NCBI GenBank assembly: GCA_042569595.1
Contig: JBHPHI010000001.1
Coordinates: 8,326 to 72,325, forward strand
DNA: 64,000 nt
DNA from: Patescibacteria group bacterium
Lineage (GTDB): Bacteria > Patescibacteriota > Microgenomatia > UBA1400 > 2-01-FULL-45-11
Reading direction: 5' to 3'
Shown piece after piece: positions 18,696 through 57,450 of the stretch. Both the position numbers and the translations under genes were made by a program. Every line of letters begins with the position of its first letter. The stretch's first letter is position 1. A model generated the notes under the pieces. That model searched no databases, had not been told where the DNA came from, and saw only the letters and a list, made by a program, of their open reading frames with translations.

Positions 18696-19397
18696 ATGCT
18701 CCAAGATCTCAAAAAAGACCTTCGAAAATTCGCAGATCCAAAAAAGGTTCCAGACTATCAAAGATTTTTCAAAACCAGTCCTGGTGAATACGGAGAAGGG
18801 GACATATTCCTAGGAATCAAAGTTCCCAATAGCCGAAAAGTTGCCAAAAAATACATCAAACTTCCACTGGAAAAAATTCAAGCTCTACTTAAATCAAAAT
18901 TTCACGAAGAAAGATTTGTGGGGCTCGTGATCTTGGTGCTCAAATATAAAAAAGGCGAAGAAGACGAAAAACAAAAAATCTATGACTTTTATCTCAAAAA
19001 CACCAAATATATCAACAATTGGGACTTGGTAGACGTAAGCTGTCACAAAGTAATTGGATTACATCTGGTAGAAAGAGATAGAAGCATTATTTACAAACTA
19101 GCAAAATCAAAAGACTTATGGGAAAAAAGAATCTCCGTCATTTCTACCTTCGCGTTTATCAATATTGGACAATTTGAAGATACTCTCAAAATCTCAGAAA
19201 TATTAGTCAAAGACGATCATGATCTTATCCATAAAGCAGTTGGCTGGGCTCTTCGCGAAGTGGGGAAAAAAGATCAAAAAATGGAAGAAGGGTTTCTAAA
19301 GAAACACTACAAAACCATGCCCCGAACTATGCTTAGGTATGCCATCGAAAAATTCCCAGAAGACTTAAGACAAAAATATCTTAAAGGAGAATTGTGA
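18696..19397 (+). CDS. DNA alkylation repair protein (AlkD-like HEAT-repeat glycosylase family)
   Basis: ...INNWDLVDVSC... and ...AVGWALREVGKKD... signature segments; about 230 aa. Confidence 0.75.
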   Translation: MLQDLKKDLRKFADPKKVPDYQRFFKTSPGEYGEGDIFLGIKVPNSRKVAKKYIKLPLEKIQALLKSKFHEERFVGLVILVLKYKKGEEDEKQKIYDFYLKNTKYINNWDLVDVSCHKVIGLHLVERDRSIIYKLAKSKDLWEKRISVISTFAFINIGQFEDTLKISEILVKDDHDLIHKAVGWALREVGKKDQKMEEGFLKKHYKTMPRTMLRYAIEKFPEDLRQKYLKGEL

Positions 19398-21009: not shown

Positions 21010-21312
21010 ATGAAAGAAAACAAAAAAATAATATCGAAGAAAAAAATTCTTTTAATAATTGTAAGTCTTCAAGTAATTTTGATTGGGGCTGCGGTTTTTC
21101 TATTTAAGAAAAACGGGGGTGCCGGAGGGGGGAGTAGTTCTGGCTCTCTTGTCCCTATTTGGGTAGCGGTATTTATCCCAATTATTGCCACAAGAAAGAA
21201 AAAACCATCTAACAAAGAAGGAAAAAATCTTATGTTCTCTGTGTACATTGGCCTAGCTCTCTGTCTATTGTTGGGAATAGTGTTCTTCTTCCTAAAAAAA
21301 TCTAGCATTTAA
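21010..21312 (+). CDS. small two-TM membrane protein with Gly/Ser linker
   Basis: TATAAT 20996-21001 upstream; two hydrophobic helices. Its 3' end (21232-21312) has a diverged second copy at 24441-24524. Confidence 0.45.
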   Translation: MKENKKIISKKKILLIIVSLQVILIGAAVFLFKKNGGAGGGSSSGSLVPIWVAVFIPIIATRKKKPSNKEGKNLMFSVYIGLALCLLLGIVFFFLKKSSI

Positions 21313-21343
21313 GTAGTATTTTAGGGATATAAAAGTGTTTGTG

Positions 21344-21371
21344 CTCCGTGTGGGATGCTATTGTAACTTAT
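21344..21371 (+). repeat. 28-bp direct repeat, copy A (CTCCGTGTGGGATGCTATTgtAACTTAT)
   Basis: 26/28 identical to 23491-23518 (19 + 7 nt exact blocks); sits 11 nt upstream of the tspO -35. Confidence 0.9.
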
Positions 21372-21381
21372 ATTTCATCAT

Positions 21382-21411
21382 TTGAAGCAAATCAGATGTT
21401 TCAAGTACAAT
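21382..21411 (+). promoter_or_regulatory. candidate promoter of tspO
   Basis: TTGAAG - 18 nt - TACAAT; GGGGAG Shine-Dalgarno before ATG 21441. Confidence 0.4.
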
Positions 21412-21440
21412 AAACTTATTAGATTAATGGGGAGAAAATA

Positions 21441-21836
21441 ATGCAAAGCTATGAATGGTATCAACAGTTAATTAAACCCTCTTGGGCACCTCCATCATGG
21501 TTGTTTGGTCCAGTGTGGACAGTTCTTTACATCCTTATTTCAATTTCATTTTTCAGAGTATTTCAATTATTCTCCCAAAAAAAGATTGCCTTTATTATCA
21601 TTCTCCCATTTATTCTTAATCTTATCTTCAATCTTTTGTTCACTACTCTGCAATTTGGACTAAAGAACAATCTTTTAGCAGCCATTGACATCATTTTAGT
21701 TTTAGTCACCCTTTTATGGGCAATGAAGGCAATATATCCACACGCAAAATGGATTTCCTTTATTCAAATACCATATTTACTTTGGGTATCTTTTGCCACT
21801 GTTCTACAATTATCAGTTACATATTTAAATAAATAA
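21441..21836 (+). CDS. tspO: TspO/MBR tryptophan-rich sensory protein, short form lacking the usual first TM helix
   Basis: WYQQLIKPSWAPPSWLFGPVWTVLY signature. 131 aa, with an in-frame stop 21 nt upstream of the ATG. Confidence 0.8.
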   Translation: MQSYEWYQQLIKPSWAPPSWLFGPVWTVLYILISISFFRVFQLFSQKKIAFIIILPFILNLIFNLLFTTLQFGLKNNLLAAIDIILVLVTLLWAMKAIYPHAKWISFIQIPYLLWVSFATVLQLSVTYLNK

Positions 21837-21837
21837 C

Positions 21838-22233
21838 ATGTTTTTAAAACAATACTTCATCACATTACCAATCTTTCTAGCCATAGACGCCGTTTGGTTA
21901 GTGTTTATCGCAAACAAGTTTTATTCAAAATACATCGGTTTTCTCATGAAATCAGACGTCAATTTTATTGCAGCTGCTCTTTTCTACTTACTGTTTGTCG
22001 TGGGATTAGTAGTTTTTGCTATCGCCCCATCTCTAGAGAAGGGATCGTGGATACAAGCACTCCTTTTAGGAGCGCTTCTAGGTCTAATATCTTACTCAAC
22101 CTATGATTTAACCAACTTAGCTACCATAAAAGACTGGCCAGTATTGGTTACCATAGTAGACATGATCTGGGGAACACTCCTTGGAGGTTTAGTTTCTCTT
22201 GTCTCTTACTTCATAATTTCCAAATTTTCATAA
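21838..22233 (+). CDS. DUF2177-like membrane protein
   Basis: Four TM helices, ...AIDAVWL... and ...YSTYDLTNLATIKDWP...VDMIWG... pattern. Confidence 0.55.
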   Translation: MFLKQYFITLPIFLAIDAVWLVFIANKFYSKYIGFLMKSDVNFIAAALFYLLFVVGLVVFAIAPSLEKGSWIQALLLGALLGLISYSTYDLTNLATIKDWPVLVTIVDMIWGTLLGGLVSLVSYFIISKFS

Positions 22234-22252
22234 ACATTTAAAGCCAATACGC

Positions 22253-22681
22253 ATGAGACTTTGGAGCCTTCATCCCAGATATTTAGACACGAAAGGCCTT
22301 CTTGCCGTCTGGAGAGAAGGATTACTAGCCAAAAATGTAATCGAAGGAAAGACTAAAGGCTACACCAAACACCCTCAGCTTATCCGATTCAAATCACATT
22401 CATCACCAAAAAATGCCATCAACTATTATCTCCATCAAATATTTTTAGAGTCCATTAATCGAAGTTATAAATTCGATAAAAGTAAACTTATCTATATAGA
22501 CAAAATAAGTAAAATCAAAGTCACTACCAAGCAAGTAGATTATGAACTCAAACACCTAAAAAACAAGCTAAAGTTAAGAGATTCCTCAGGTTACAAAAAA
22601 CTCCAGACAATAGAAGAAATCAAATTAAACCCCTTATTTACCATCATCCCTGGTGAAATCGAGTCTTGGGAAATTGTCTAA
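22253..22681 (+). CDS. pyrimidine dimer DNA glycosylase (T4 DenV / Pyr_excise family)
   Basis: N-terminal MRLWSLHPRYLDTKGLLAVWREGLLA... and ...HPQLIRF... are characteristic of this family. Confidence 0.8.
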   Translation: MRLWSLHPRYLDTKGLLAVWREGLLAKNVIEGKTKGYTKHPQLIRFKSHSSPKNAINYYLHQIFLESINRSYKFDKSKLIYIDKISKIKVTTKQVDYELKHLKNKLKLRDSSGYKKLQTIEEIKLNPLFTIIPGEIESWEIV

Positions 22682-23469
22682 ATCTTTTTCTTAGGAAATA
22701 TCACCAAAAGACTTGTGCTTTTTTTGTATTCTTGATATTTTTTATTACTCTTATGCCTCTCATCATATTTCTTTTCCAATAAAGGAATCCCGCTTACAAA
22801 CATAAGAATGAACGTAATAAACATGGGTCCTACTATAGTAAACCACCCCAAACCACTCAAAAGGGGAGAGGCATACGCAAACAATCCCCACCACAATAAT
22901 ATTTCACCAAAATAATTTGGGTGTCTTGAATATTTCCATAGACCAGAGTCTATCCAAAGTCCTTTATTTTTCTTATTGTTTTTAAATACAAACTTTTGCC
23001 AATCAGATACCGTTTCGATTATCAAACCCAATGCCCAAATTAGCATACCTACTACCATCCAAGGCACTATTCCAATATCCTTCTTTTCTAAAAGAACATA
23101 TATAGTTGGAAGCATTATTGCCCAAACTGCAACTCCCTGAAAAAACCAAAATTTATAAAAGCTTAGAGCATTCTCTCTCATTTGATCAAATCTTTTGTCC
23201 TTCTTAATCTTTAGAATCCTAATTAATAAGTAAGCAATAAGTCTGACTCCCCAAACGATCACCATTAAAGAAAGAAGATTTTGAAAAGAGTGGTAAGTGC
23301 CTGTACTAATTAAAAAATATATTGTCAGCAATATGAAAGTCATGCCATAAGTAAAATCTGTAAACTTGTCAGTCTTAAATGCATAAGCAAAGATAAAAAA
23401 TAGAGTGTTTATTCCCAAGGAAACGAGTAAAGCAAAAAGATATGGATTCATGACAAAATTATACAACAA
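22678..23469 (-). CDS. DUF1295 / steroid 5-alpha-reductase-like membrane protein (likely leaderless start ATG at 23451)
   Basis: ...LWKYSRHPNYFGEILLWWG... signature, polytopic. TATAAT (23463-23458, minus) lies 6 nt upstream of ATG 23451. Confidence 0.75.
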   Translation of the reverse strand: MLYNFVMNPYLFALLVSLGINTLFFIFAYAFKTDKFTDFTYGMTFILLTIYFLISTGTYHSFQNLLSLMVIVWGVRLIAYLLIRILKIKKDKRFDQMRENALSFYKFWFFQGVAVWAIMLPTIYVLLEKKDIGIVPWMVVGMLIWALGLIIETVSDWQKFVFKNNKKNKGLWIDSGLWKYSRHPNYFGEILLWWGLFAYASPLLSGLGWFTIVGPMFITFILMFVSGIPLLEKKYDERHKSNKKYQEYKKSTSLLVIFPKKKI

Positions 23470-23490
23470 TCAATATGAAAAAATTCCGCA

Positions 23491-23518
23491 CTCCGTGTGG
23501 GATGCTATTAGAACTTAT
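23491..23518 (+). repeat. 28-bp direct repeat, copy B (CTCCGTGTGGGATGCTATTagAACTTAT)
   Basis: See copy A. Lies between the stop of 23519-24400 (-) and the DUF1295 promoter. Confidence 0.9.
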
Positions 23519-24400
23519 CTACCAACCAACACCGCCAACGATGTCAGAATATATTGCAAATTTTGAATTAAATGCATCAACATCACCTGGAGCATCTACA
23601 TCTAATATTAAATCTATGGCAGGGCTCAAAAACAAGCCAACATCTAACCCCAAGGTTCTAGACAACACCTTTTCATAATCATTCTTAGTTCTTAAGTTAG
23701 ACAAGGGAACTGCTTCCTTTACGCCCTCAATCATTTGTATTGTTTTTGAAACATAGTTAGCGGCAATAGAATAAAAGAGGGGAGCATTTCCAAGCTTTGC
23801 AAAATACAACATTCTTTGAATTCCTGTAACTAACATGCTGCTAGCCTGCGAAGCCCTATATTCGTCTACTACGGGCACAGACAAACTTCTTAAAGAACTT
23901 GATTTCGCTGAATACACATTTCCAAAAACAAAAGACTCATCTTTCATTGGCCAATACATGTATTTCCTGTGGGGCATCAATAAGTCTGCATTACTTTTTC
24001 CAACGATTGGAACTCCAATATCTGTTTCGGGAAAGTTGCTTGAAATCCAATCAATAGTTTCAGGCCTTAAAAACGGAAGATCAGACGAAACGACTAATAT
24101 CTCATCAGAACTACCTGTTTTCTCATGCCTATCTAAAGCCAATTTCAAGTTGCCCATGAAGCTACCCCCCTCACCAACCAATACACAACTTTTTTCCATT
24201 AGATCTGTTTGTTTGCCCAATACTTCTTCGGGACCTGCTACAAAAACTTGACCAGATGTTTCAGAAGCATCCAAAGCACTCAATACCCTGGAAATAATTG
24301 GCTTTCCATTAATTTGATTAAGGTGTTTATATACACCCTCATCACGAACTAAGTCACCACCAGCCAACAATAAAATGTCAGGAGTTAAATTTTCCTTCAT
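23519..24400 (-). CDS. MobA-like NTP-transferase family protein with C-terminal extension
   Basis: N-terminal ILLLAGG......ING.PII nucleotide-binding motif; function not assignable. Confidence 0.45.
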   Translation of the reverse strand: MKENLTPDILLLAGGDLVRDEGVYKHLNQINGKPIISRVLSALDASETSGQVFVAGPEEVLGKQTDLMEKSCVLVGEGGSFMGNLKLALDRHEKTGSSDEILVVSSDLPFLRPETIDWISSNFPETDIGVPIVGKSNADLLMPHRKYMYWPMKDESFVFGNVYSAKSSSLRSLSVPVVDEYRASQASSMLVTGIQRMLYFAKLGNAPLFYSIAANYVSKTIQMIEGVKEAVPLSNLRTKNDYEKVLSRTLGLDVGLFLSPAIDLILDVDAPGDVDAFNSKFAIYSDIVGGVGW

Positions 24401-24440
24401 GTCGAGGGATTATACCAAAAATAGTCAAGAAAAAAACCTA

Positions 24441-24524
24441 ATGTACTCTATATACATTGGCCTAGCTGTTTTTCTTCTCTTGGGAATAATATTTTTCTTA
24501 AAAAAGTCCTCTGCAGGAATCTAA
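24441..24524 (+). pseudogene. 27-codon remnant or paralog of the 3' end of 21010-21312
   Basis: MYSIYIGLAVFLLLGIIFFLKKSSAGI versus MFSVYIGLALCLLLGIVFFFLKKSSI. Roughly three quarters of the nucleotides are identical over about 85 nt (one 3-nt gap), and similarity continues a few codons upstream of the ATG. Confidence 0.4.
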
Positions 24525-27194: not shown

Positions 27195-27235
27195 TCTTAA
27201 AAATATCTAACATAATAATTACACACATTCGAAAC

Positions 27236-28180
27236 TTATTTGTTTCCACTATGATATTTCTCATGAACACTTCGAAGCTGAGGATTAGTTACGTGAGTAT
27301 AAATTTGCGTGGTAGAAATGTTTTTGTGTCCTAACATTTCCTGAACTTCTCTAAGCCCCGCTCCACCGGATAGAATATCTGTCGCAAAAGAATGTCTTAG
27401 GCCGTGCGGAGTGATCTTTACGGGCAGCTTTGCCTTCTTTCTATACTTCTCAACTATCCGCTGAACGCTCCTAGCGCTTAGCCTCATTTCTTCACCTTTA
27501 TCGTAAGGTTCAGCTTTTGTGCGAGTATAGCGAACAAAAGCTGGTATCCACATATCTTCGCGCATATCAAAATACTTCTGTATCCACTCAACTGCTCTAG
27601 AGCTTAAAAACACAATTCTGGCCTTCTTGCCCTTTCCTATTACCCCAAATTCGCGTCTTTTCAGGTTTATCTGATCTCTGTTTAAAGAAACCAACTCAGA
27701 CACACGAAGGCCTGTGGAGAAGAGCATCTCCAATATTGCTTTGTCCCTCAGTCCTCGTTCGGTAGATATGCTAGGAGCATTCAAAAGTCTTTCTACCTGA
27801 TCTTGATCAAGAAACTTAAGAGACTTGCTTTCAGTTTTTGGAAGGTCAATTTTATCTGGAGCCAGCACATCGTAGTCATTTTTTATTAACCATTTCAAAA
27901 AACCACGAAGGGAAATGACATGATAACTTTGAGTCACGCGAGAAAGGGGAATTCCTTTTTCGTCAGTAAGACGAGATAGGTAAACTCTGTATTTTCGAAC
28001 CATCTTAAGGTCTAGCTTTTTTATGTCCTTATATCCGCGTTTTTCAAACCACGCACTAAAGCGAGTAAGGTAGTGAGCATAGTTTCTTACCGTATGTTGA
28101 CTGACCTGTCTTTCAACTTCTAGGTACTCGAGGTAGTCTGTAATTAAGTGTATCAAACTATTACTATCGGCCATTAGCAC
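27236..28180 (-). CDS. tyrosine site-specific recombinase, XerC/XerD-like (likely start MADSNS at 28174)
   Basis: N-terminal SAM-like core-binding domain; catalytic region ...TGLRVSEL..., HGLRHSFAT, LGHKNISTTQIYTHV (R-H-R-Y set). AAGGAG lies 5 nt before ATG 28174. Confidence 0.85.
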   Translation of the reverse strand: MLMADSNSLIHLITDYLEYLEVERQVSQHTVRNYAHYLTRFSAWFEKRGYKDIKKLDLKMVRKYRVYLSRLTDEKGIPLSRVTQSYHVISLRGFLKWLIKNDYDVLAPDKIDLPKTESKSLKFLDQDQVERLLNAPSISTERGLRDKAILEMLFSTGLRVSELVSLNRDQINLKRREFGVIGKGKKARIVFLSSRAVEWIQKYFDMREDMWIPAFVRYTRTKAEPYDKGEEMRLSARSVQRIVEKYRKKAKLPVKITPHGLRHSFATDILSGGAGLREVQEMLGHKNISTTQIYTHVTNPQLRSVHEKYHSGNK

Positions 28181-28640
28181 TCCTTATAATTATCTGCCAA
28201 CATACTCCTCCATATTGATGGACTGATCTATCGGCCCTTTTTTGGTGTTAGTGATGTGTTTTGATATAGTAAATAAATTCATTGGATCCTATAACAAATA
28301 AATGTAACGTCCTAGAGTATTTTCAAATGAACCTGCAGGGAAGGAGGGGAGACTTAACCCACAACAAAGGTCACCTAAAGCAACAAATCCTACATACTCA
28401 CTACATAAAAGTTGGAAGTTCGTTCTATTTTTCTTAAATATCATAGGCAGTTTCTACTCCATTGTACGCCATCAAACAATTTTTTTGTATACACATACAT
28501 CCAAAGAGGGGAGGAGCACAATTGAATAAAAGATTTATGAATAGGGAATAAATTTATTAAAATTTATTTAAGATTATTACGTCTTCATGTCGCAATATAT
28601 TTATTTCTTGATAGGGGAGATATTGTGCGACATAAGATCT

Positions 28641-28669
28641 TTGAAAAAATATCTTTTCAAACATACAAT
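28641..28669 (+). promoter_or_regulatory. promoter giving a leaderless transcript of the TIM-barrel gene
   Basis: TTGAAA (28641-46) - 17 nt - TACAAT (28664-69) - 7 nt - ATG 28677. Confidence 0.55.
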
Positions 28670-28676
28670 ATTCATT

Positions 28677-29579
28677 ATGATCAAACCCGGAATAAAACTT
28701 GGACCAAAAAACGACCTACACCGCCTAGAAAACACCGGCGCTAAGTACTGTGAGGTTTGGTATAGAATCGATAAGCCCGAATGGTATTCTAACTACTTTA
28801 CATTCTTCAAAAAAAACCGAATAAACTCTGGGCTTCATTATTGGGGGGCGGTTGATCAAGCGTATGAAACAAATATTGCTTATCCTGGAGAGATTCAAGA
28901 AAAATCCATCAAGCTAATTGAAAAATGCATTGATGTTGCAGCCCAAAACAAATGTCACTATGTAAACATTCATGCTGGAGCCAGGAAATTGACCAGACTA
29001 GACATGAAAACTTTAAGATTTAATGTTGATCAATACAGTCTTGAAGTGTCTGAAAAAGACGCTGATACAGCCCAAAAAGAATCACTCATACATCTTAGTA
29101 ATTACGCCTCCGACAAAGGCGTATTATTCCTAGTGGAAACAATTCCTGCCAAGATTCACAACAAAGATACCAGACATAAACCTGAGCCTTACTATGCAAT
29201 GACCTCACAAAACCTACTCAAGCGAGCCACGCAAGACAACATCAGTATCACAAATGACTTCTGCCATACATTTTCCGAAGAGTTCGAAAAGCCTTTAGAC
29301 CAGTTATGGAAATCACTTTGGGATAAAACCTCTAAACTCGCACCTTACACAAAACTACTGCATATAAATACTTTAGTGTCGCCATACAACGGAACTGACA
29401 CTCATCACGGAATTACCAACGAAGATTTTGAAATTGATGGAATATTTCCAACCAAAGAAAAATTGAAAGAAGCGCTTTCGCTTTTTAGGGACCGCGACGA
29501 TGTGTGGGCGATTAACGAACCGTCCGAAAACCACGAAGATAACTACTTTTCACTAAAAGAGCTTATAAACACCCTCTAA
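28677..29579 (+). CDS. xylose-isomerase-like TIM-barrel protein (AP endonuclease family 2 / sugar phosphate isomerase-epimerase type)
   Basis: ...CHYVNIHAG..., ...LFLVETIP..., ...DFCHTF..., ...LLHIN... metal-ligand-like strand ends typical of this fold. The track ORF starts at 28587, but 28677 fits the promoter. Confidence 0.6.
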   Translation: MIKPGIKLGPKNDLHRLENTGAKYCEVWYRIDKPEWYSNYFTFFKKNRINSGLHYWGAVDQAYETNIAYPGEIQEKSIKLIEKCIDVAAQNKCHYVNIHAGARKLTRLDMKTLRFNVDQYSLEVSEKDADTAQKESLIHLSNYASDKGVLFLVETIPAKIHNKDTRHKPEPYYAMTSQNLLKRATQDNISITNDFCHTFSEEFEKPLDQLWKSLWDKTSKLAPYTKLLHINTLVSPYNGTDTHHGITNEDFEIDGIFPTKEKLKEALSLFRDRDDVWAINEPSENHEDNYFSLKELINTL

Positions 29580-53803: not shown

Positions 53804-54373
53804 CTAATCTGAATACTCAGTATTCTTTTTCATATCCTTTTCAATCAACCTTCTCAAATACACTGCTCTCGGAGTTTTTTTCTTTTTTGAAACATGATCC
53901 AGATACTGCCCAATCATCGGTGAAATAAAAAAGTTAAATCTTATATCCACCTTTTCAACAGCTTCCTCAACGGCATAATCCAAAATATCGTCAAGATCTT
54001 TTTCTGTGTACTCAAAAAGCAAAAATCTATCAGACTTTACTCCCTGCAAAACCCCTGGCTCTTTTCCGGGTTGATACAAGGCGACTACCGGCCTTCCTTT
54101 GTCTAAGGCTAAAGTTACCTCATGACCAATACTAATAGATGAAGGGAAAGAAACCTCACAAACCACCAAGTCACATGAGGTAATCATTTTATTCATCTTC
54201 CTGTGATACTTTAACCTCTGATCATGAGTTCTGTTATCAATCTCACCTGTTGTCATTTTCAATATGTGATCTGACATCACCTTATGTCCAATTTTTTCCA
54301 AAAACCCAACTATTTTTCCATAAACATCCTTGCCAACTCCACCATGCAATGATCCCGTAAAATAAATTTTCAT
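53804..54373 (-). CDS. DNPH1/Rcl-like (nucleoside 2-deoxyribosyltransferase fold) domain fused to a C-terminal ribbon-helix-helix tail, paralog 1
   Basis: MKIYFTGSLHGG..., ...CDLVVCEVSFPSSISIGHEVTLALDKGRPVVAL... (acidic catalytic-position Glu present); tail IRFNFFISPMIGQYLDHVSKKKKTPRAVYLRRLIEKDM. Confidence 0.6.
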   Translation of the reverse strand: MKIYFTGSLHGGVGKDVYGKIVGFLEKIGHKVMSDHILKMTTGEIDNRTHDQRLKYHRKMNKMITSCDLVVCEVSFPSSISIGHEVTLALDKGRPVVALYQPGKEPGVLQGVKSDRFLLFEYTEKDLDDILDYAVEEAVEKVDIRFNFFISPMIGQYLDHVSKKKKTPRAVYLRRLIEKDMKKNTEYSD

Positions 54374-54374
54374 A

Positions 54375-55316
54375 TTAGTCTCTAAGTATTTCCAAATCTG
54401 ATTCTAATTTTTCACAAGGAAGTTGGGTTAGAAACATAGATGTTCTATTCAACACCTCCTCTTTTGTGATAGATTCCAAAATCTCTGTCCCATATGCTTC
54501 CACCGTGTAAGAAGCCAAAATACTTCCCAATAACGCGGCAGTTCTCATTGATCTCATATCAAATCTACCCAAAGCTGACAAAACACCAGCTATCGCTCCT
54601 CCTAAAACATCTCCCGCTCCCGTTGGATCAACAGCATAAACCAATGGATAGCTTGGAACTATAAAATTTCCCAACTTCCCATAAACAGACAGGCCATGCT
54701 CTCCCTTTTTATAAACAATCACTTTCGGCCCCAAAAGCATTAGTGTCTCTATCATTTCTGGCAAAGGGAGATCTTTTCCAACCAAAAACTTTGCCTCCCC
54801 TTCCGATATTGTGAAAACATCAACATCCTCAAGAACTTTTATCAGGTGATCTCTCTTCTCTATCATCCACAATTCCATACTATCTAATATTTTTATAGTA
54901 TTTTTTGGAAGGTTTTTCACAATTTTTCCCTGAATTTCTGGGTCTATATTTGACACAAAAGCAGCGAAACTGTCTTTTGAAAGTGGCTTAACTTTTTTTG
55001 CATCATAATCCTCAAAAGCATTCATCTCATTCTTTATGGTGGTCACTTTGCCTAGATCAGCAGAGTATCGTGCCTCCCAATGAAAAGATTTCCTTTTTGA
55101 CTTATATACTCCAGAAATATCCACCCCCTTGGATTCCAGCAAATCTAAATAATCTAAGGGAAAATCGTTGCCAACAATACTGCTCAGAGCTGTTTCACAA
55201 AAAATTGATGATGCTAGTGCTGCGTAAGTGGCTGAACCACCCACAACATTATTCAAACAATGCTCTTTAAAATGAATTTTATCCACAGCCATAGTGGGAC
55301 AAATAAAAGACTTCAT
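54375..55316 (-). CDS. PfkB-family (ribokinase-like) sugar/nucleoside kinase
   Basis: ...VGGSATY..., C-terminal DPTGAGDVLGGA anion-hole/catalytic motif. Confidence 0.8.
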   Translation of the reverse strand: MKSFICPTMAVDKIHFKEHCLNNVVGGSATYAALASSIFCETALSSIVGNDFPLDYLDLLESKGVDISGVYKSKRKSFHWEARYSADLGKVTTIKNEMNAFEDYDAKKVKPLSKDSFAAFVSNIDPEIQGKIVKNLPKNTIKILDSMELWMIEKRDHLIKVLEDVDVFTISEGEAKFLVGKDLPLPEMIETLMLLGPKVIVYKKGEHGLSVYGKLGNFIVPSYPLVYAVDPTGAGDVLGGAIAGVLSALGRFDMRSMRTAALLGSILASYTVEAYGTEILESITKEEVLNRTSMFLTQLPCEKLESDLEILRD

Positions 55317-55373
55317 CTTATGTTTACCTTTCTTCTTTCAGATTGTATCAAAATATATCAATTTTTAACAAAA

Positions 55374-55943
55374 CTAATGATCTGAAAAGTTTGAATCTCC
55401 CATGTCTTCTTCTATTAACCTTCTCAGGTAAACAGCTCTGGGAACTCTCTTTTTTCTTGCAATCCAATCTAAATAATTTGCAATTTTAGGAGATATAAAA
55501 AAGTTAAACCTCGTATCTGTCTTCCCAGCAGCCTCTTTTATAGCAAATTCCAAAACATCTTCTAAATCTTCAAGGCTATATTTTTCTACAATCAGTTTAT
55601 CTGACTTTACTCCCACCAAAAAATGAGATGCTTTCCCAGTTGAGTGAAGAACAATTACTGGCTTTCCTTTTTCCAAAGCCACAGTAATCTCATGGCCCAA
55701 ACTAAGCGAGTTACTTGAAGCTTCAACCAACACCACGTCAGCTTGATTCATCCACTTTAAAACTTGCTTATAATATCCAACCTTATCATCATCTGAAATT
55801 TCATTGTACACATAATCTTCATTAACCTTAGTTGTCTGCTCCAATACCTTACAATCAAGCTTTTCCAACGTCTCTACGATCTTTTTATAGTGATTCAGAT
55901 ACTTTTTTGAACCAGATACAGAAGCTGTAAAATATACTTTCAA
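55374..55943 (-). CDS. DNPH1/Rcl-like domain + ribbon-helix-helix tail, paralog 2 (TTG start)
   Basis: MKVYFTASVSGS..., ...ADVVLVEASSNSLSLGHEITVALEKGKPVIVL...; tail TRFNFFISPKIANYLDWIARKKRVPRAVYLRRLIEEDM. Confidence 0.6.
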   Translation of the reverse strand: MKVYFTASVSGSKKYLNHYKKIVETLEKLDCKVLEQTTKVNEDYVYNEISDDDKVGYYKQVLKWMNQADVVLVEASSNSLSLGHEITVALEKGKPVIVLHSTGKASHFLVGVKSDKLIVEKYSLEDLEDVLEFAIKEAAGKTDTRFNFFISPKIANYLDWIARKKRVPRAVYLRRLIEEDMGDSNFSDH

Positions 55944-56018
55944 TTTCGTCCTATACTTTTATTGCCTATCCAATATACCATTGTCCGTCAACCGAACAAA
56001 AAATCATCAAAAAATCTA

Positions 56019-56891
56019 TTAATTTTTGACCCATACTGTTAATTTTGACCAAGGAATGTGCTTAAACCCAGCTTTTTTTAAGGCATTATTTAACCTCATT
56101 TCATCAAAATCAAAGTGAAATGGATGTCTTCCTCCATGAGTATTTCCAAACTCAGATCGATGGACAAACACTTTTGTTTTTTTAGATAGTTTTTCAACAA
56201 CTTCTAAAGGGTTAACCATATGCTCCAACACGTCAATTGCCCAAAAAACTTCAACGTCCGGAAGTTTTCTTGCTTTCTCAACATCAATAATGACATTTTT
56301 TAGTGCCCTATTATTCAACCTCCACTTTAAAAAATCAACTGATGGACACATATAGTCTACAAACTCAGCTCTAAAACCCTTTTCTATCATCAGCAAACCA
56401 TCATTCCCCACACCACACCCATAGTCCACAAAACTTGAAACAGAAAACCTCTTACTAATCTTATCCATATCAGAAGAAAACGTATCTCTGTCCCCACTTT
56501 CATACCAGATAATTAAATTATATAAATACTCATTAGTATTCTTATAAAAATCCGCAACTTCTTCTTTGCTGCTGGGGTTTTTATTCAACCAGTCGTTTGC
56601 AATGGCTAAAGAAGAGTCAAAATACTCAACAAAGGAACTTCCTAGGTATATTTCCAGCTCCTGCAAACCCAAAGACCCCTTAGATGCATCCCACCTTGTC
56701 TTGTTCCACAAGTTCCAACAATCTCTACAGTTATTGATGTGATCTTTGTGTTTTTCAGTTTCTGACCCACTAAGGTGTTGTTTTGACAAAAGAAACGATG
56801 ACAGGTCATCAAGAGAAAAGTGCTTCTTCAGCACTTTTTTATTTATTTTTTTTGAATCAACTTTATGTTTGTCGGCGCTAATCATCCTCAT
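56019..56891 (-). CDS. class I SAM-dependent methyltransferase with N-terminal zf-HC2 (anti-sigma-type) zinc-finger-like segment
   Basis: HINNCRDC (H-x3-C-x2-C) preceded by ...LSSFLLSKQHLSGSE...; motif I VDYGCGVGNDG; ...AIDVLEHM.... The start overlaps paralog 3 by 14 nt. Confidence 0.7.
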   Translation of the reverse strand: MRMISADKHKVDSKKINKKVLKKHFSLDDLSSFLLSKQHLSGSETEKHKDHINNCRDCWNLWNKTRWDASKGSLGLQELEIYLGSSFVEYFDSSLAIANDWLNKNPSSKEEVADFYKNTNEYLYNLIIWYESGDRDTFSSDMDKISKRFSVSSFVDYGCGVGNDGLLMIEKGFRAEFVDYMCPSVDFLKWRLNNRALKNVIIDVEKARKLPDVEVFWAIDVLEHMVNPLEVVEKLSKKTKVFVHRSEFGNTHGGRHPFHFDFDEMRLNNALKKAGFKHIPWSKLTVWVKN

Positions 56892-57450
56892 ATCCCTGCT
56901 CTCTTTTCATTGCTTGTTCTATTAGTCTTCTCAGATATACTGCCCTTGGCACTCTTTTCTTTTTTGAAATCCAGTCAAGATAATGAGAAATTTTTGGAGA
57001 TATAAAAAAGTTAAACCTAGTATCCATTTGTTCTTGAGCAAACTCAAAAGATCTCTCAAGCGCTTTTTTAACATTTCCCGGCTTGTATTCAACAACCTGC
57101 AACCTATCGTTGTCTATACCTAAAGCGAAATGTGGCTCATGATTTGGCAGATACATCGCAACTACCGGTTTGTTTGCATCAATCGCTTTATGAAGAACAT
57201 ATCCCATAGAGAAACTATGCACAGAAACCTCCAAAACAACAACATCTGCCGAAGAAATATACTTCATCGCCTTCTTAAACAAACCAACCTGATCTTTATG
57301 GTTGCCAGAATAAAAACTATCTTCATCAACTTTAAAAACAAGGTTGTCTGCATTCTCATGACCCAACTCTTCTATTGAGTCATAAATCTTCCTATAGTTT
57401 TCCTCAAAACTTGCCTTACCTCTTGCGGAAGCGGTGAAATATACTTTCAT
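56878..57450 (-). CDS. DNPH1/Rcl-like domain + ribbon-helix-helix tail, paralog 3 (catalytic-position Glu replaced)
   Basis: MKVYFTASARGK..., ...ADVVVLEVSVHSFSMGYVLHKAIDANKPVVAM... (GYVL instead of GHE[VI]); tail TRFNFFISPKISHYLDWISKKKRVPRAVYLRRLIEQAM. Confidence 0.6.
   Translation of the reverse strand: MKVYFTASARGKASFEENYRKIYDSIEELGHENADNLVFKVDEDSFYSGNHKDQVGLFKKAMKYISSADVVVLEVSVHSFSMGYVLHKAIDANKPVVAMYLPNHEPHFALGIDNDRLQVVEYKPGNVKKALERSFEFAQEQMDTRFNFFISPKISHYLDWISKKKRVPRAVYLRRLIEQAMKREQGYEDD

Follow-up and report, generated by a model that had tools for sequence, protein, structure and literature searches.

A four-gene cassette bracketed by direct repeats

The window, the whole 64-kb stretch of DNA that was analysed, belongs to a Patescibacteria (CPR) bacterium, as identical proteins are named by NCBI, and the guess of a reduced genome in the initial annotation was correct. 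Within it, two copies of a 28-mer enclose exactly four genes, encoding a TspO protein, a DUF2177 protein, a Pyr_excise glycosylase and a DUF1295 protein (Table 1). No other credible open reading frame was found between the repeats, and the 2119-nt segment separating them is 94% coding. Pfam matches confirmed all four identities first proposed from the sequence, with scores of 111, 152 and 232 bits for TspO/MBR, DUF2177 and DUF1295 (gathering cut-offs of 24, 27 and 20, respectively). The TspO protein shares 75-82% identity with its orthologues in related loci. DUF1295 runs convergently to the tspO operon; the stop codons of the glycosylase and DUF1295 genes overlap by 4 nt.

Table 1. Features of the cassette and its surroundings (window coordinates).
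Feature	Position	Strand	Evidence or remark
Small membrane-protein gene, 100 aa	21010..21312	+	3′ unit 21218-21290 repeated at 24427-24499
28-mer copy 1 (CTCCGTGTGGGATGCTATTGTAACTTAT)	21344..21371		Left boundary of the cassette; repeat comparison
Sigma-70-like promoter candidate TTGAAG-N18-TACAAT upstream of tspO	21382..21411	+	Consensus scan only
TspO/MBR membrane protein, 131 aa	21441..21836	+	Pfam PF03073 TspO_MBR, 5e-32
DUF2177 membrane protein, 131 aa	21838..22233	+	Pfam PF09945, 8e-45
Pyr_excise-family (pyrimidine-dimer DNA glycosylase) protein, 142 aa	22253..22681	+	Pfam PF03013, 1.3e-19
DUF1295 (steroid-5-alpha-reductase-like) membrane protein, 257 aa	22678..23451	-	Pfam, 6e-69
TATAAT of leaderless-type promoter, 6 nt upstream of DUF1295 ATG	23458..23463	-	Read from sequence
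28-mer copy 2 (CTCCGTGTGGGATGCTATTAGAACTTAT)	23491..23518		Right boundary of the cassette, abuts stop codon of gene 23519-24400; repeat comparison
NTP_transf_3 (MobA-like) gene, 293 aa, near-orphan	23519..24400	-	Pfam, homology searches; 3′ end is candidate insertion target
Second copy of the small-TM 3′ unit	24427..24499	+	79% DNA identity; in short ORF ending at 24524
Xer-like tyrosine recombinase, full-length	27236..28180	-	3.7 kb outside the repeats; only recombinase found in the window

The glycosylase had been described as T4 DenV-type. Its membership of the family stands, as the PF03013 match covers model positions 1-78 of 81 (E = 1.3e-19). No pairwise alignment was obtained with T4 endonuclease V. 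There was also no pairwise match to PDB chains. The hallmarks of T4 endonuclease V are a catalytic N-terminal amine and Glu23; by eye, a WRE motif at residues 20-22 of the cassette protein resembles the YRE of T4.

Both transcription units have a candidate promoter. The only sigma-70-like match on the + strand upstream of tspO is TTGAAG-N18-TACAAT, and the TATAAT-N6-ATG layout in front of DUF1295 recurs before DUF1295 orthologues in other lineages. The tspO -35 at 21382 and the DUF1295 TATAAT at 23463-23458 (minus strand), both named in the initial annotation, were found by the scan and in the sequence, respectively. By GC3 the four genes fit the host (z between -1.1 and +1.3) and give no compositional sign of recent import; since relatives share this GC, the test is uninformative.

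The two 28-mers, CTCCGTGTGGGATGCTATT-nn-AACTTAT, are direct copies on the + strand that agree at 26 of 28 positions, with 19 nt exact, a differing GT/AG dinucleotide and a further 7 nt exact. No match appeared in 100 dinucleotide shuffles, and within the 64-kb window the pair is the top non-coding repeat. The position, identity and common orientation first reported for the repeats thus held up in repeat comparison and against shuffles. Similarity does not extend beyond the 28 nt and both edges are sharp. Allowing up to 10 mismatches, no third copy was detected within the 64-kb window; a degenerate candidate at ~24551, downstream of the orphan small-TM unit, was not significant (P = 0.61). Both are located between genes. 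The stop codon of the small membrane-protein gene (21010-21312) precedes copy 1 by 31 nt and the tspO ATG follows it after 69 nt, the near edge of the copy being 10 nt from the candidate -35. Copy 2, on the upstream side of DUF1295, is 39 nt away from that gene's ATG (23451, minus strand) and 27 nt from the TATAAT, and begins at the base immediately following the stop codon of the intact NTP_transf_3 gene.

Flanking DNA and a nearby recombinase

A second direct repeat surrounds a slightly larger segment. The 3′ unit of the small membrane-protein gene recurs beyond the NTP-transferase, and this 73-nt repeat (79% identity) encloses 21291-24426, that is, 28-mer, cassette, 28-mer and NTP-transferase. 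It is more decayed than the 28-mer pair and is the older of the two, and the presence of this second, more decayed repeat around the first marks the locus as a spot of repeated rearrangement.

The genes on either side offer little for comparison. The NTP-transferase retrieved its own entry only from a search of 5.8 billion proteins and relatives at 33-35% identity in an exhaustive search, while relatives of the 271-aa right neighbour reach at most 45% and lie on short contigs with unrelated neighbours. No related locus sharing flanking genes with the window was found, and the flanking genes had no close homologues in the databases searched.

Several classes of mobile element were considered. 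Pfam found no recombinase or transposase domain inside the cassette, which has no space for a remnant of one. A transposon with target-site duplication was rejected, as there is no transposase domain, no terminal inverted repeats lie just inside the 28-mers and the inner ends align like shuffles (P = 0.54). An integron gene cassette was likewise rejected, since neither copy folds significantly in the manner of attC and the Xer-like protein, the only recombinase found, stays far short of the cut-offs of the integron-integrase models. A dif-like half-site beside the xer gene (about 27207-27234) was within chance expectation.

IMEX elements and pdif modules are Xer-dependent and flanked by 28-bp dif-like sites, and in Xer sites the XerD arm is conserved as TTATGTnAAnT. 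The cassette resembles them in having direct repeats of exactly 28 bp and a gene for a full-length tyrosine recombinase of the Xer family 3.7 kb away, so that the 28-mers might be sites of that enzyme bounding an IMEX- or dif-module-like unit. When the 28-mer is split 11-6-11, however, just 3 of 11 positions agree if the arms are read as inverted repeats, and the right arm does not fit the XerD arm. Moreover, cumulative GC skew drops monotonically across the window, so it holds no replication terminus, and the locus lies away from a skew switch. We therefore regard Xer sites of this kind as highly improbable.

Related loci across Patescibacteria

TspO and DUF2177 occur together in 84 related loci, DUF1295 or Pyr_excise being present in some and absent from others, in unrelated contexts, with variable gene order and with no shared flanking genes. 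The glycosylase is missing from most of them and its place varies: in the window it separates DUF2177 from DUF1295, in locus L100 it lies beyond DUF1295 and in locus L129 it comes after DUF2177. In several relatives the module adjoins tRNA-Gln genes or lies within variable regions with defence or toxin genes. Since gene order differs and flanking genes are never shared across the 84 loci, the gene set is best described as accessory and repeatedly relocated, and it is a common module of the phylum rather than a rarity. The initial annotation had considered such a module noteworthy in a reduced genome; this view finds no support, as TspO-DUF2177 with DUF1295 proved to be widespread in the phylum.

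The 28-mer does not travel with these genes. In 88 related loci carrying them (405 kb), no 28-mer-like sequence was found, the best matches being equalled by shuffled patterns, and the 19-nt core had no match in three public collections, among which the source genome is not included. Viral contigs contained neither relatives of TspO or the glycosylase nor the 19-mer, and a phage origin was rejected. A contig scan with the DUF1295 alignment returned distant phyla only, among the matches listed.

Other repeats do accompany the module in relatives. The sequence GCTGCGAACCGTGGACAGAGTTCGAACCTTTT is present in 5 copies within 12.8 kb of locus L001 and in several other lineages, and in L001 and L091 it stands on both sides of the module; in L168 a repeat of 62-85 nt brackets it. 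Related Patescibacteria thus carry families of the type to which the 28-mers could belong: a REP- or MITE-like repeat of low copy number, dispersed between genes, of which two members or remnants fell by chance in the gaps on either side of the cassette. Against this, only two copies and no degenerate ones occur in 64 kb, the 28-mer has neither hairpin nor palindrome, and an nhmmer profile built from 18 instances of the relatives' dispersed repeat (GTGGACAGAGTTCGAACC...) matches neither copy, which led us to reject homology with that repeat. In a MAFFT alignment, the relatives' repeat and the 28-mer share a column range upstream of tspO. A dispersed repeat is on this evidence a quite improbable source of the pair.

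Regulatory readings of the 28-mer

The 28-mers, which run in the same direction, face the two inward promoters in opposite orientations, and the same is true with respect to the two outward flanking genes. Rfam gave no matches at 19-26 kb, and folding of either copy on either strand yielded z-scores of -0.03 to -1.24, none of them significant. The missing Rfam match and weak folds dispose of a structured RNA or terminator, and together with the inverted arrangement they exclude a strand-specific role for the 28-mer. Copy 2 forms a small hairpin with its flank; copy 1 forms none. A promoter within the 28-mer was also dismissed: its TGTAAC / AGAAC part resembles an ECF -35, but no -10 follows it, and from the sequence one copy would fire antisense into the NTP-transferase gene.

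Light- and singlet-oxygen-responsive regulons are known elsewhere, such as those of Rhodobacter sigma-E/ChrR and the LitR/CarH type, and the sigma-E consensus is TGATCC-N16-TAAGA. To our knowledge, very few transcription factors have been described in the CPR phylum. The second of two readings offered in the initial annotation takes both 28-mers for sites of a single DNA-binding regulator, which would co-control DUF1295 and the tspO operon; light, UV or singlet oxygen could be its signal. Each 28-mer does lie just upstream of one unit's core promoter (10 nt to the -35, 27 nt to the TATAAT), the genes have a stress theme in common, and the high identity of the repeats despite the host-like codon composition of the cassette could mean selection. 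A comparable arrangement exists in L168, where a different lineage-specific repeat stands before both the tspO operon and the gene after it, each time in the orientation of the unit that it precedes.

The 28-mer itself argues otherwise. Read directly, it has no dyad symmetry or internal tandem repeat, and it departs from the sigma-E consensus and from typical ECF -35/-10 layouts. The copies are inverted with respect to the two promoters and stand at different distances from the start codons (69 nt versus 39 nt), and two sites of the same regulator would not usually share a 19-nt exact run with such sharp edges. No transcription-factor gene was found in or beside the cassette, nor among the 47 ORFs covered by the Pfam scan (out of ~65 of at least 110 aa in the window; the ~20 outside the scan lie mostly at 44.8-64 kb). 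In addition, related loci lack the 28-mer beyond shuffled controls and public collections lack its core. The shared-site reading is thus weakened because in relatives the module stands in unrelated contexts and lacks the repeats, an outcome that the initial annotation had itself named as refuting, and further weakened by the asymmetry and inverted placement of the 28-mer; we consider it somewhat unlikely.

Compared with the light and singlet-oxygen regulons (sigma-E/ChrR, LitR/CarH and Chlamydomonas SAK1; PMC4067076), the cassette overlaps in gene content, namely TspO, DUF1295, DUF2177 and dimer repair, and is alike in the idea of a single cis element before several stress genes. It differs in that no sigma/anti-sigma or MerR/B12 regulator was present among the 47 ORFs scanned, and in that the 28-mer resembles neither their promoters nor their operators and is not kept in orthologous loci. 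As a stress-regulon operator, the element shows a position just upstream of the two inward promoters of functionally linked genes, without the symmetry, the constant orientation and spacing, or the conservation.

A proposed origin of the repeats as duplicated junctions

Taken together, the 28-mer pair looks more like a recombination scar than a conserved regulatory switch. We tentatively favour, with a probability of roughly 45%, the model that the 28-mers are duplicated att-like junctions arising from insertion or rearrangement of a self-promoted module that encodes no recombinase. One original 28-bp stretch would have been duplicated when the 2.1-kb module entered, or was rearranged, just downstream of the NTP-transferase stop codon, possibly when a circular intermediate recombined via the 28-bp sequence in an att-like or Campbell-type manner. 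The module is self-contained: the tspO, DUF2177 and glycosylase genes form an inward operon, DUF1295 is convergent with it and apparently leaderless, and both units have a putative promoter of their own just inside a repeat. Because no recombinase is encoded, the module would now be fixed or movable only in trans, and its loss by recombination across the direct repeats would leave one 28-mer behind.

The identity of 26/28, the 19-nt exact run, the sharp edges, the same direction and the presence of only two copies in 64 kb point to a recent exact duplication rather than to two independently constrained sites. Duplicated junctions are also consistent with the largely coding segment between the repeats carrying both of its own promoters, with the location of copy 2, since integration targets typically lie directly behind the stop codon of a gene that stays intact, with the outer 73-nt repeat as a mark of repeated rearrangement, and with the relocation of the gene set among the 84 loci, some beside tRNA-Gln genes or in variable regions. 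Other observations count against such junctions. No integrase or transposase lies inside, the only recombinase being 3.7 kb outside; there are no terminal inverted repeats within the 28-mers; and the GC3 of the cassette is host-typical. The target duplications of transposons known to us are far shorter than 28 bp, and a neutral scar of an old insertion should differ at more than two of 28 positions. Neither an empty site nor a donor was found in the databases searched, which contain no close relative. Of the two original readings, the one that took the repeats for end or target duplications of an acquired cassette is, though tentative, the better supported.

Among the closest counterparts are CIMEs, cis-mobilisable elements derived from integrative elements, which are integrase-less islets bounded by att-type direct repeats. 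Like these, the cassette is a short accessory block with near-identical direct repeats, one of which lies where a chromosomal gene has its 3′ end, and with no recombinase inside, and if it were excised through the repeats a single copy would stay behind. Unlike them, it measures only 2.1 kb, and no cognate integrase, related integrative element, donor or empty site was found. Measured against an att-bounded integrative islet of the tyrosine-recombinase type, the cassette has the direct-repeat ends, without an integrase inside or at its edge and without deviating composition (GC3 z of -1.1 to +1.3, relatives having the same GC). It is unlikely that the 28-mers are functional sites of a kind new to CPR bacteria, whether as recombination sites of a minimal, recombinase-less 'photoprotection cassette' shuttled from one Patescibacteria genome to another by a trans-acting (Xer-like) recombinase or as the operator of a light or oxidative-stress regulator.

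Stress theme and significance

Mobile-element machinery is scarce in CPR genomes. The light and oxidative-stress theme suggested at the outset agrees with two published associations. Heliorhodopsin genes, including those of Patescibacteria, adjoin DUF2177 and DUF1295, for which a lipid-remodelling or light link has been proposed (bioRxiv 10.1101/2021.02.16.431466), and in Chlamydomonas DUF2177 and DUF1295 are both induced by singlet oxygen (PMC4067076). The cassette shares the linkage of DUF2177 and DUF1295 with the heliorhodopsin neighbourhoods and differs in its partners, TspO and the dimer glycosylase; among the 47 Pfam-scanned ORFs there was no rhodopsin or DegV gene. Family annotation and this literature suggest that the module likely protects from photo-oxidative and UV damage, in which TspO may handle porphyrins, the glycosylase may excise dimers, and DUF1295 and DUF2177 may act in membrane-lipid chemistry.

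No description of a TspO-DUF2177-DUF1295 module for Patescibacteria was found in the open-access literature; the association of the genes has already been hinted at there, and the immediate value of the observation is modest. If the 28-mers were an operator, they would offer a first point of access to the regulation of stress responses in CPR organisms. If they are insertion junctions, the locus would be a clean and very small example of the shuffling of accessory stress genes in ultra-small CPR genomes, with TspO-DUF2177-DUF1295, with or without the dimer glycosylase, as a recurrent, relocatable module of the phylum.

Two copies of a 28-bp repeat enclose four genes

The 28-mer CTCCGTGTGGGATGCTATT-nn-AACTTAT lies on the + strand on either side of the cassette (see table), and 26/28 positions agree between its copies: 19 consecutive bases match, followed by a GT/AG dinucleotide and seven further matching bases. 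Similarity ended at both edges in gapped and ungapped alignments. Matches were absent from dinucleotide-preserving shuffles of the window (0/100) and the 28-mer was the top non-coding repeat when all repeats of the 64 kb were ranked, excluding chance as the origin of the pair. With up to 10 mismatches allowed, no third copy was detected in the window. These analyses confirm the coordinates, identity and shared orientation reported in the initial annotation, and Pfam recovered its four genes and nothing else between the repeats.

The inter-repeat segment (2119 nt, 94% coding) holds two convergent transcription units whose stops overlap by 4 nt. The description of its glycosylase as T4 DenV-type holds at the family level (PF03013), but no pairwise alignment was obtained to T4 endonuclease V (an approximate query) and no PDB chain was alignable.

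Both promoter sites proposed earlier are present. Upstream of tspO, TTGAAG-N18-TACAAT was the sole sigma-70-like match in a consensus scan, and on the minus strand TATAAT precedes the DUF1295 ATG by 6 nt. The latter is probably a real promoter giving a leaderless mRNA, because no fewer than six other lineages have the TATAAT-N6-ATG layout in front of their DUF1295 orthologues. TATAAT (GATAAT in L093) stands 6-7 nt before this ATG in the window and in related loci L001, L004, L097, L100, L093 and L005-L008, implying that these DUF1295 mRNAs would be leaderless. The relatives' tspO orthologues have TGnTATAAT-N13-ATG inside a conserved block of ~50 nt, which is absent from the window.

Coordinates of features in the window and, where a locus is named, in related loci
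Feature	Position	Strand	Remarks
28-mer copy 1	21344-21371	+	intergenic; 31 nt past stop of 100-aa membrane-protein ORF 21010-21312 (+); 69 nt before tspO ATG
28-mer copy 2	23491-23518	+	intergenic; 39 nt upstream of DUF1295 ATG (23451)
tspO promoter candidate	21382-21411	+	
TspO/MBR	21441-21836	+	Pfam
DUF2177	21838-22233	+	Pfam
Pyr_excise	22253-22681	+	Pfam
DUF1295	22678-23451	-	Pfam
DUF1295 TATAAT-N6	23452-23463	-	
NTP-transferase	23519-24400	-	MobA-like
73-nt repeat	21218-21290; 24427-24499		direct; host ORFs 21010-21312 and ~24442-24524; encloses 21291-24426
Xer-like recombinase	27236-28180	-	tyrosine recombinase
ATCTAACATAA	~27207-27234		
Repair-type genes	18696-19397; 28587-29579		
~190-aa paralogues	53804-54373; 55374-55943; 56878-57450		region 53804-57450
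GCTGCGAACCGTGGACAGAGTTCGAACCTTTT element	L001 5895-5930, 8460-8495, 11654-11689, 12526-12545, 9598-9617(-)		also L002-4, L091, L101, L128, L138, L149
62-85-nt element	L168 2476-2537, 4139-4200; L100 5423-5465		ends ...TTCCTAAATATGTnnACTAGTGGGAG
tRNA-Gln	L002 2559-2630; L093 2492-2563; L101 1941-2012; L128 3803-3874; L138 1703-1774		near module

Regulatory and Xer-site explanations of the 28-mer

Neither strand of the 28-mer folds into a significant secondary structure, and the element lacks an Rfam match, dyad symmetry and internal tandem repeats. Since its absolute orientation is the same at both sites, the inward promoters have it in opposite orientations, as do the outward flanking genes, which excludes a strand-specific role as promoter, leader or terminator. 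No terminal inverted repeats stand inside the direct-repeat pair. A shared operator, through which one regulator would control both promoters, is consistent with the position of the copies just upstream of each and with the stress theme of the genes. However, the 28-mer is asymmetric, inverted with respect to the promoters, unequally spaced from them and not conserved at orthologous loci, and no regulator gene or transcription-factor domain was detected in or beside the cassette. This second proposal of the initial annotation is further weakened by relatives that carry the module without the repeats, in unrelated contexts, and we regard it as somewhat unlikely.

The 28-bp length and a nearby xer-like gene recall dif, but when split 11-6-11 the arms are complementary at just 3/11 positions and the conserved XerD arm is missing; a dif-like sequence was rejected on this architecture, making Xer sites highly improbable. 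The Xer-like gene is full-length, scores under the XerC/XerD equivalog cut-offs and is the only recombinase/transposase domain among the window ORFs scanned (the Pfam scan covered 47 of ~65 ORFs of >=110 aa, least completely in 44.8-64 kb). Just past its stop, ATCTAACATAA matches the E. coli dif XerD arm at 10/11 positions, the other arm being unfitting; in a 64-kb sequence, chance is expected to give as good a match. The cumulative GC skew declines monotonically over the window, indicating that it includes no replication terminus.

The 28-mer and other repeats in related loci

No exact match to the 19-nt core was found in genome, metagenome or viral collections, and the closest sequences to either copy across 405 kb of related loci had 8-9 mismatches, no better than shuffled patterns. 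Relatives carry other short repeats near the module. The REP-like intergenic element GCTGCGAACCGTGGACAGAGTTCGAACCTTTT, which holds the palindrome GTTCGAAC and resembles a T-arm, is found at five sites within 12.8 kb of L001, where defence and toxin genes surround the module, and occurs in several other distinct Patescibacteria lineages; its family profile does not detect the 28-mer, which was rejected as a member. The 28-mer is thus lineage-specific and, as far as these searches show, has two copies only; that the copies belong to a low-copy dispersed repeat is quite unlikely.

A conserved 62-85-nt element brackets the module in L168, flanking TspO-DUF2177-DUF1295-like on both sides, with a related copy in L100. 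Every copy is 56-76 nt upstream of a + strand gene and co-oriented with it. The element has no Rfam match and a weak consensus fold, and may be cis-regulatory.

A possible duplicated recombination junction

The cassette lies in a less conserved stretch (18.7-28.2 kb) with a DNA-alkylation-repair gene, several small ORFs without assigned function, the near-orphan NTP-transferase, PspC/LiaF-like membrane proteins and the Xer-like gene, the rest of the window being ordinary chromosome (type IV pilus genes, gyrB/gyrA, dnaB, efp, hisS, cysS, ddl, alr, eno, glyA, thyA). Beyond its own glycosylase, the cassette has two DNA-repair-type genes within 5 kb: the alkylation-repair gene just named (PF08713) and one for an AP_endonuc_2/xylose-isomerase-like TIM-barrel protein. 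Elsewhere, three paralogues have a 144-nt segment in common (67-70% identity).

Copy 2 starts at the base right after the NTP-transferase stop codon, its last base directly adjoining that codon on the minus strand; the frame stays open for 19 codons beyond the TAG, across the 28-mer. A word-indexed search of 5.8 billion proteins returned only the NTP-transferase's own entry and an exhaustive search three relatives at 33-35%, against which the intact gene is of normal length. Around 28-mer, cassette, 28-mer and NTP-transferase, a 73-nt direct repeat (79% identical; just two copies in the window) forms an outer bracket and encodes paralogous 28-aa membrane units, NLMFSVYIGLALCLLLGIVFFFLKKSS and NLMYSIYIGLAVFLLLGIIFFLKKSS (E = 4e-10). 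It is older and more decayed than the 28-mer pair, suggesting that the locus is a site of repeated rearrangement.

We tentatively favour, at a probability of about 0.45, the explanation that the 28-mer pair is a duplication produced when the module entered by recombination at a 28-bp site. A single 28-bp sequence would originally have stood downstream of the NTP-transferase gene, and entry of the module through it would have yielded two copies. An uninterrupted 19-nt identity, abrupt edges and the direct orientation of the copies favour exact duplication by recombination over two protein-maintained sites. Also in its favour, the repeat-bounded segment is a complete functional unit including both promoters, and one that elsewhere sits in unrelated places; copy 2 abuts the stop of an intact gene; and the outer repeat is older. 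The earlier proposal of end or target duplications of an acquired cassette is thereby preferred, but no recombinase lies within the cassette, no empty site or donor was found among the related loci, and an old neutral scar would be expected to show more decay than is seen. The cassette's host-like codon composition is uninformative, since the relatives' GC is the same.

The module across the phylum

DUF1295 homologues number in the thousands, and the nearest source-named ones (57-67% identical) are Patescibacteria. The same convergent TspO-DUF2177/DUF1295 module, without the glycosylase, was present in other neighbourhoods in L001-L004, and a metagenome-contig scan with the DUF2177 protein gave 80 additional loci. 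Among the 84 loci carrying a DUF2177 orthologue, TspO was directly upstream of DUF2177 in 37, an orthologous DUF1295 was convergent in 9, and DUF1295 was co-directional and more distant in 24. A Pyr_excise gene was present in 3/84, beyond DUF1295 in L100 and right after DUF2177 in L129. No flanking gene was common to the window and any related locus. In 5 of 26 loci scanned, tRNA-Gln genes lay 40-900 nt from the TspO-DUF2177 module, which could reflect either conserved synteny or a hot spot for integration.

DUF2177 and DUF1295 have been found in heliorhodopsin neighbourhoods, Patescibacteria included (bioRxiv 10.1101/2021.02.16.431466), and tied to the Chlamydomonas singlet-oxygen response (PMC4067076); a literature search for TspO in Patescibacteria found nothing. 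The cassette is a direct-repeat-bounded accessory gene block whose gene association has already been noted in the literature. Its presence had been considered noteworthy in a reduced genome, a view not borne out by a gene set this common in the phylum. The relatives' varied arrangements and unshared flanks argue that this gene set is a common, relocatable accessory module of the phylum, not peculiar to the source genome.
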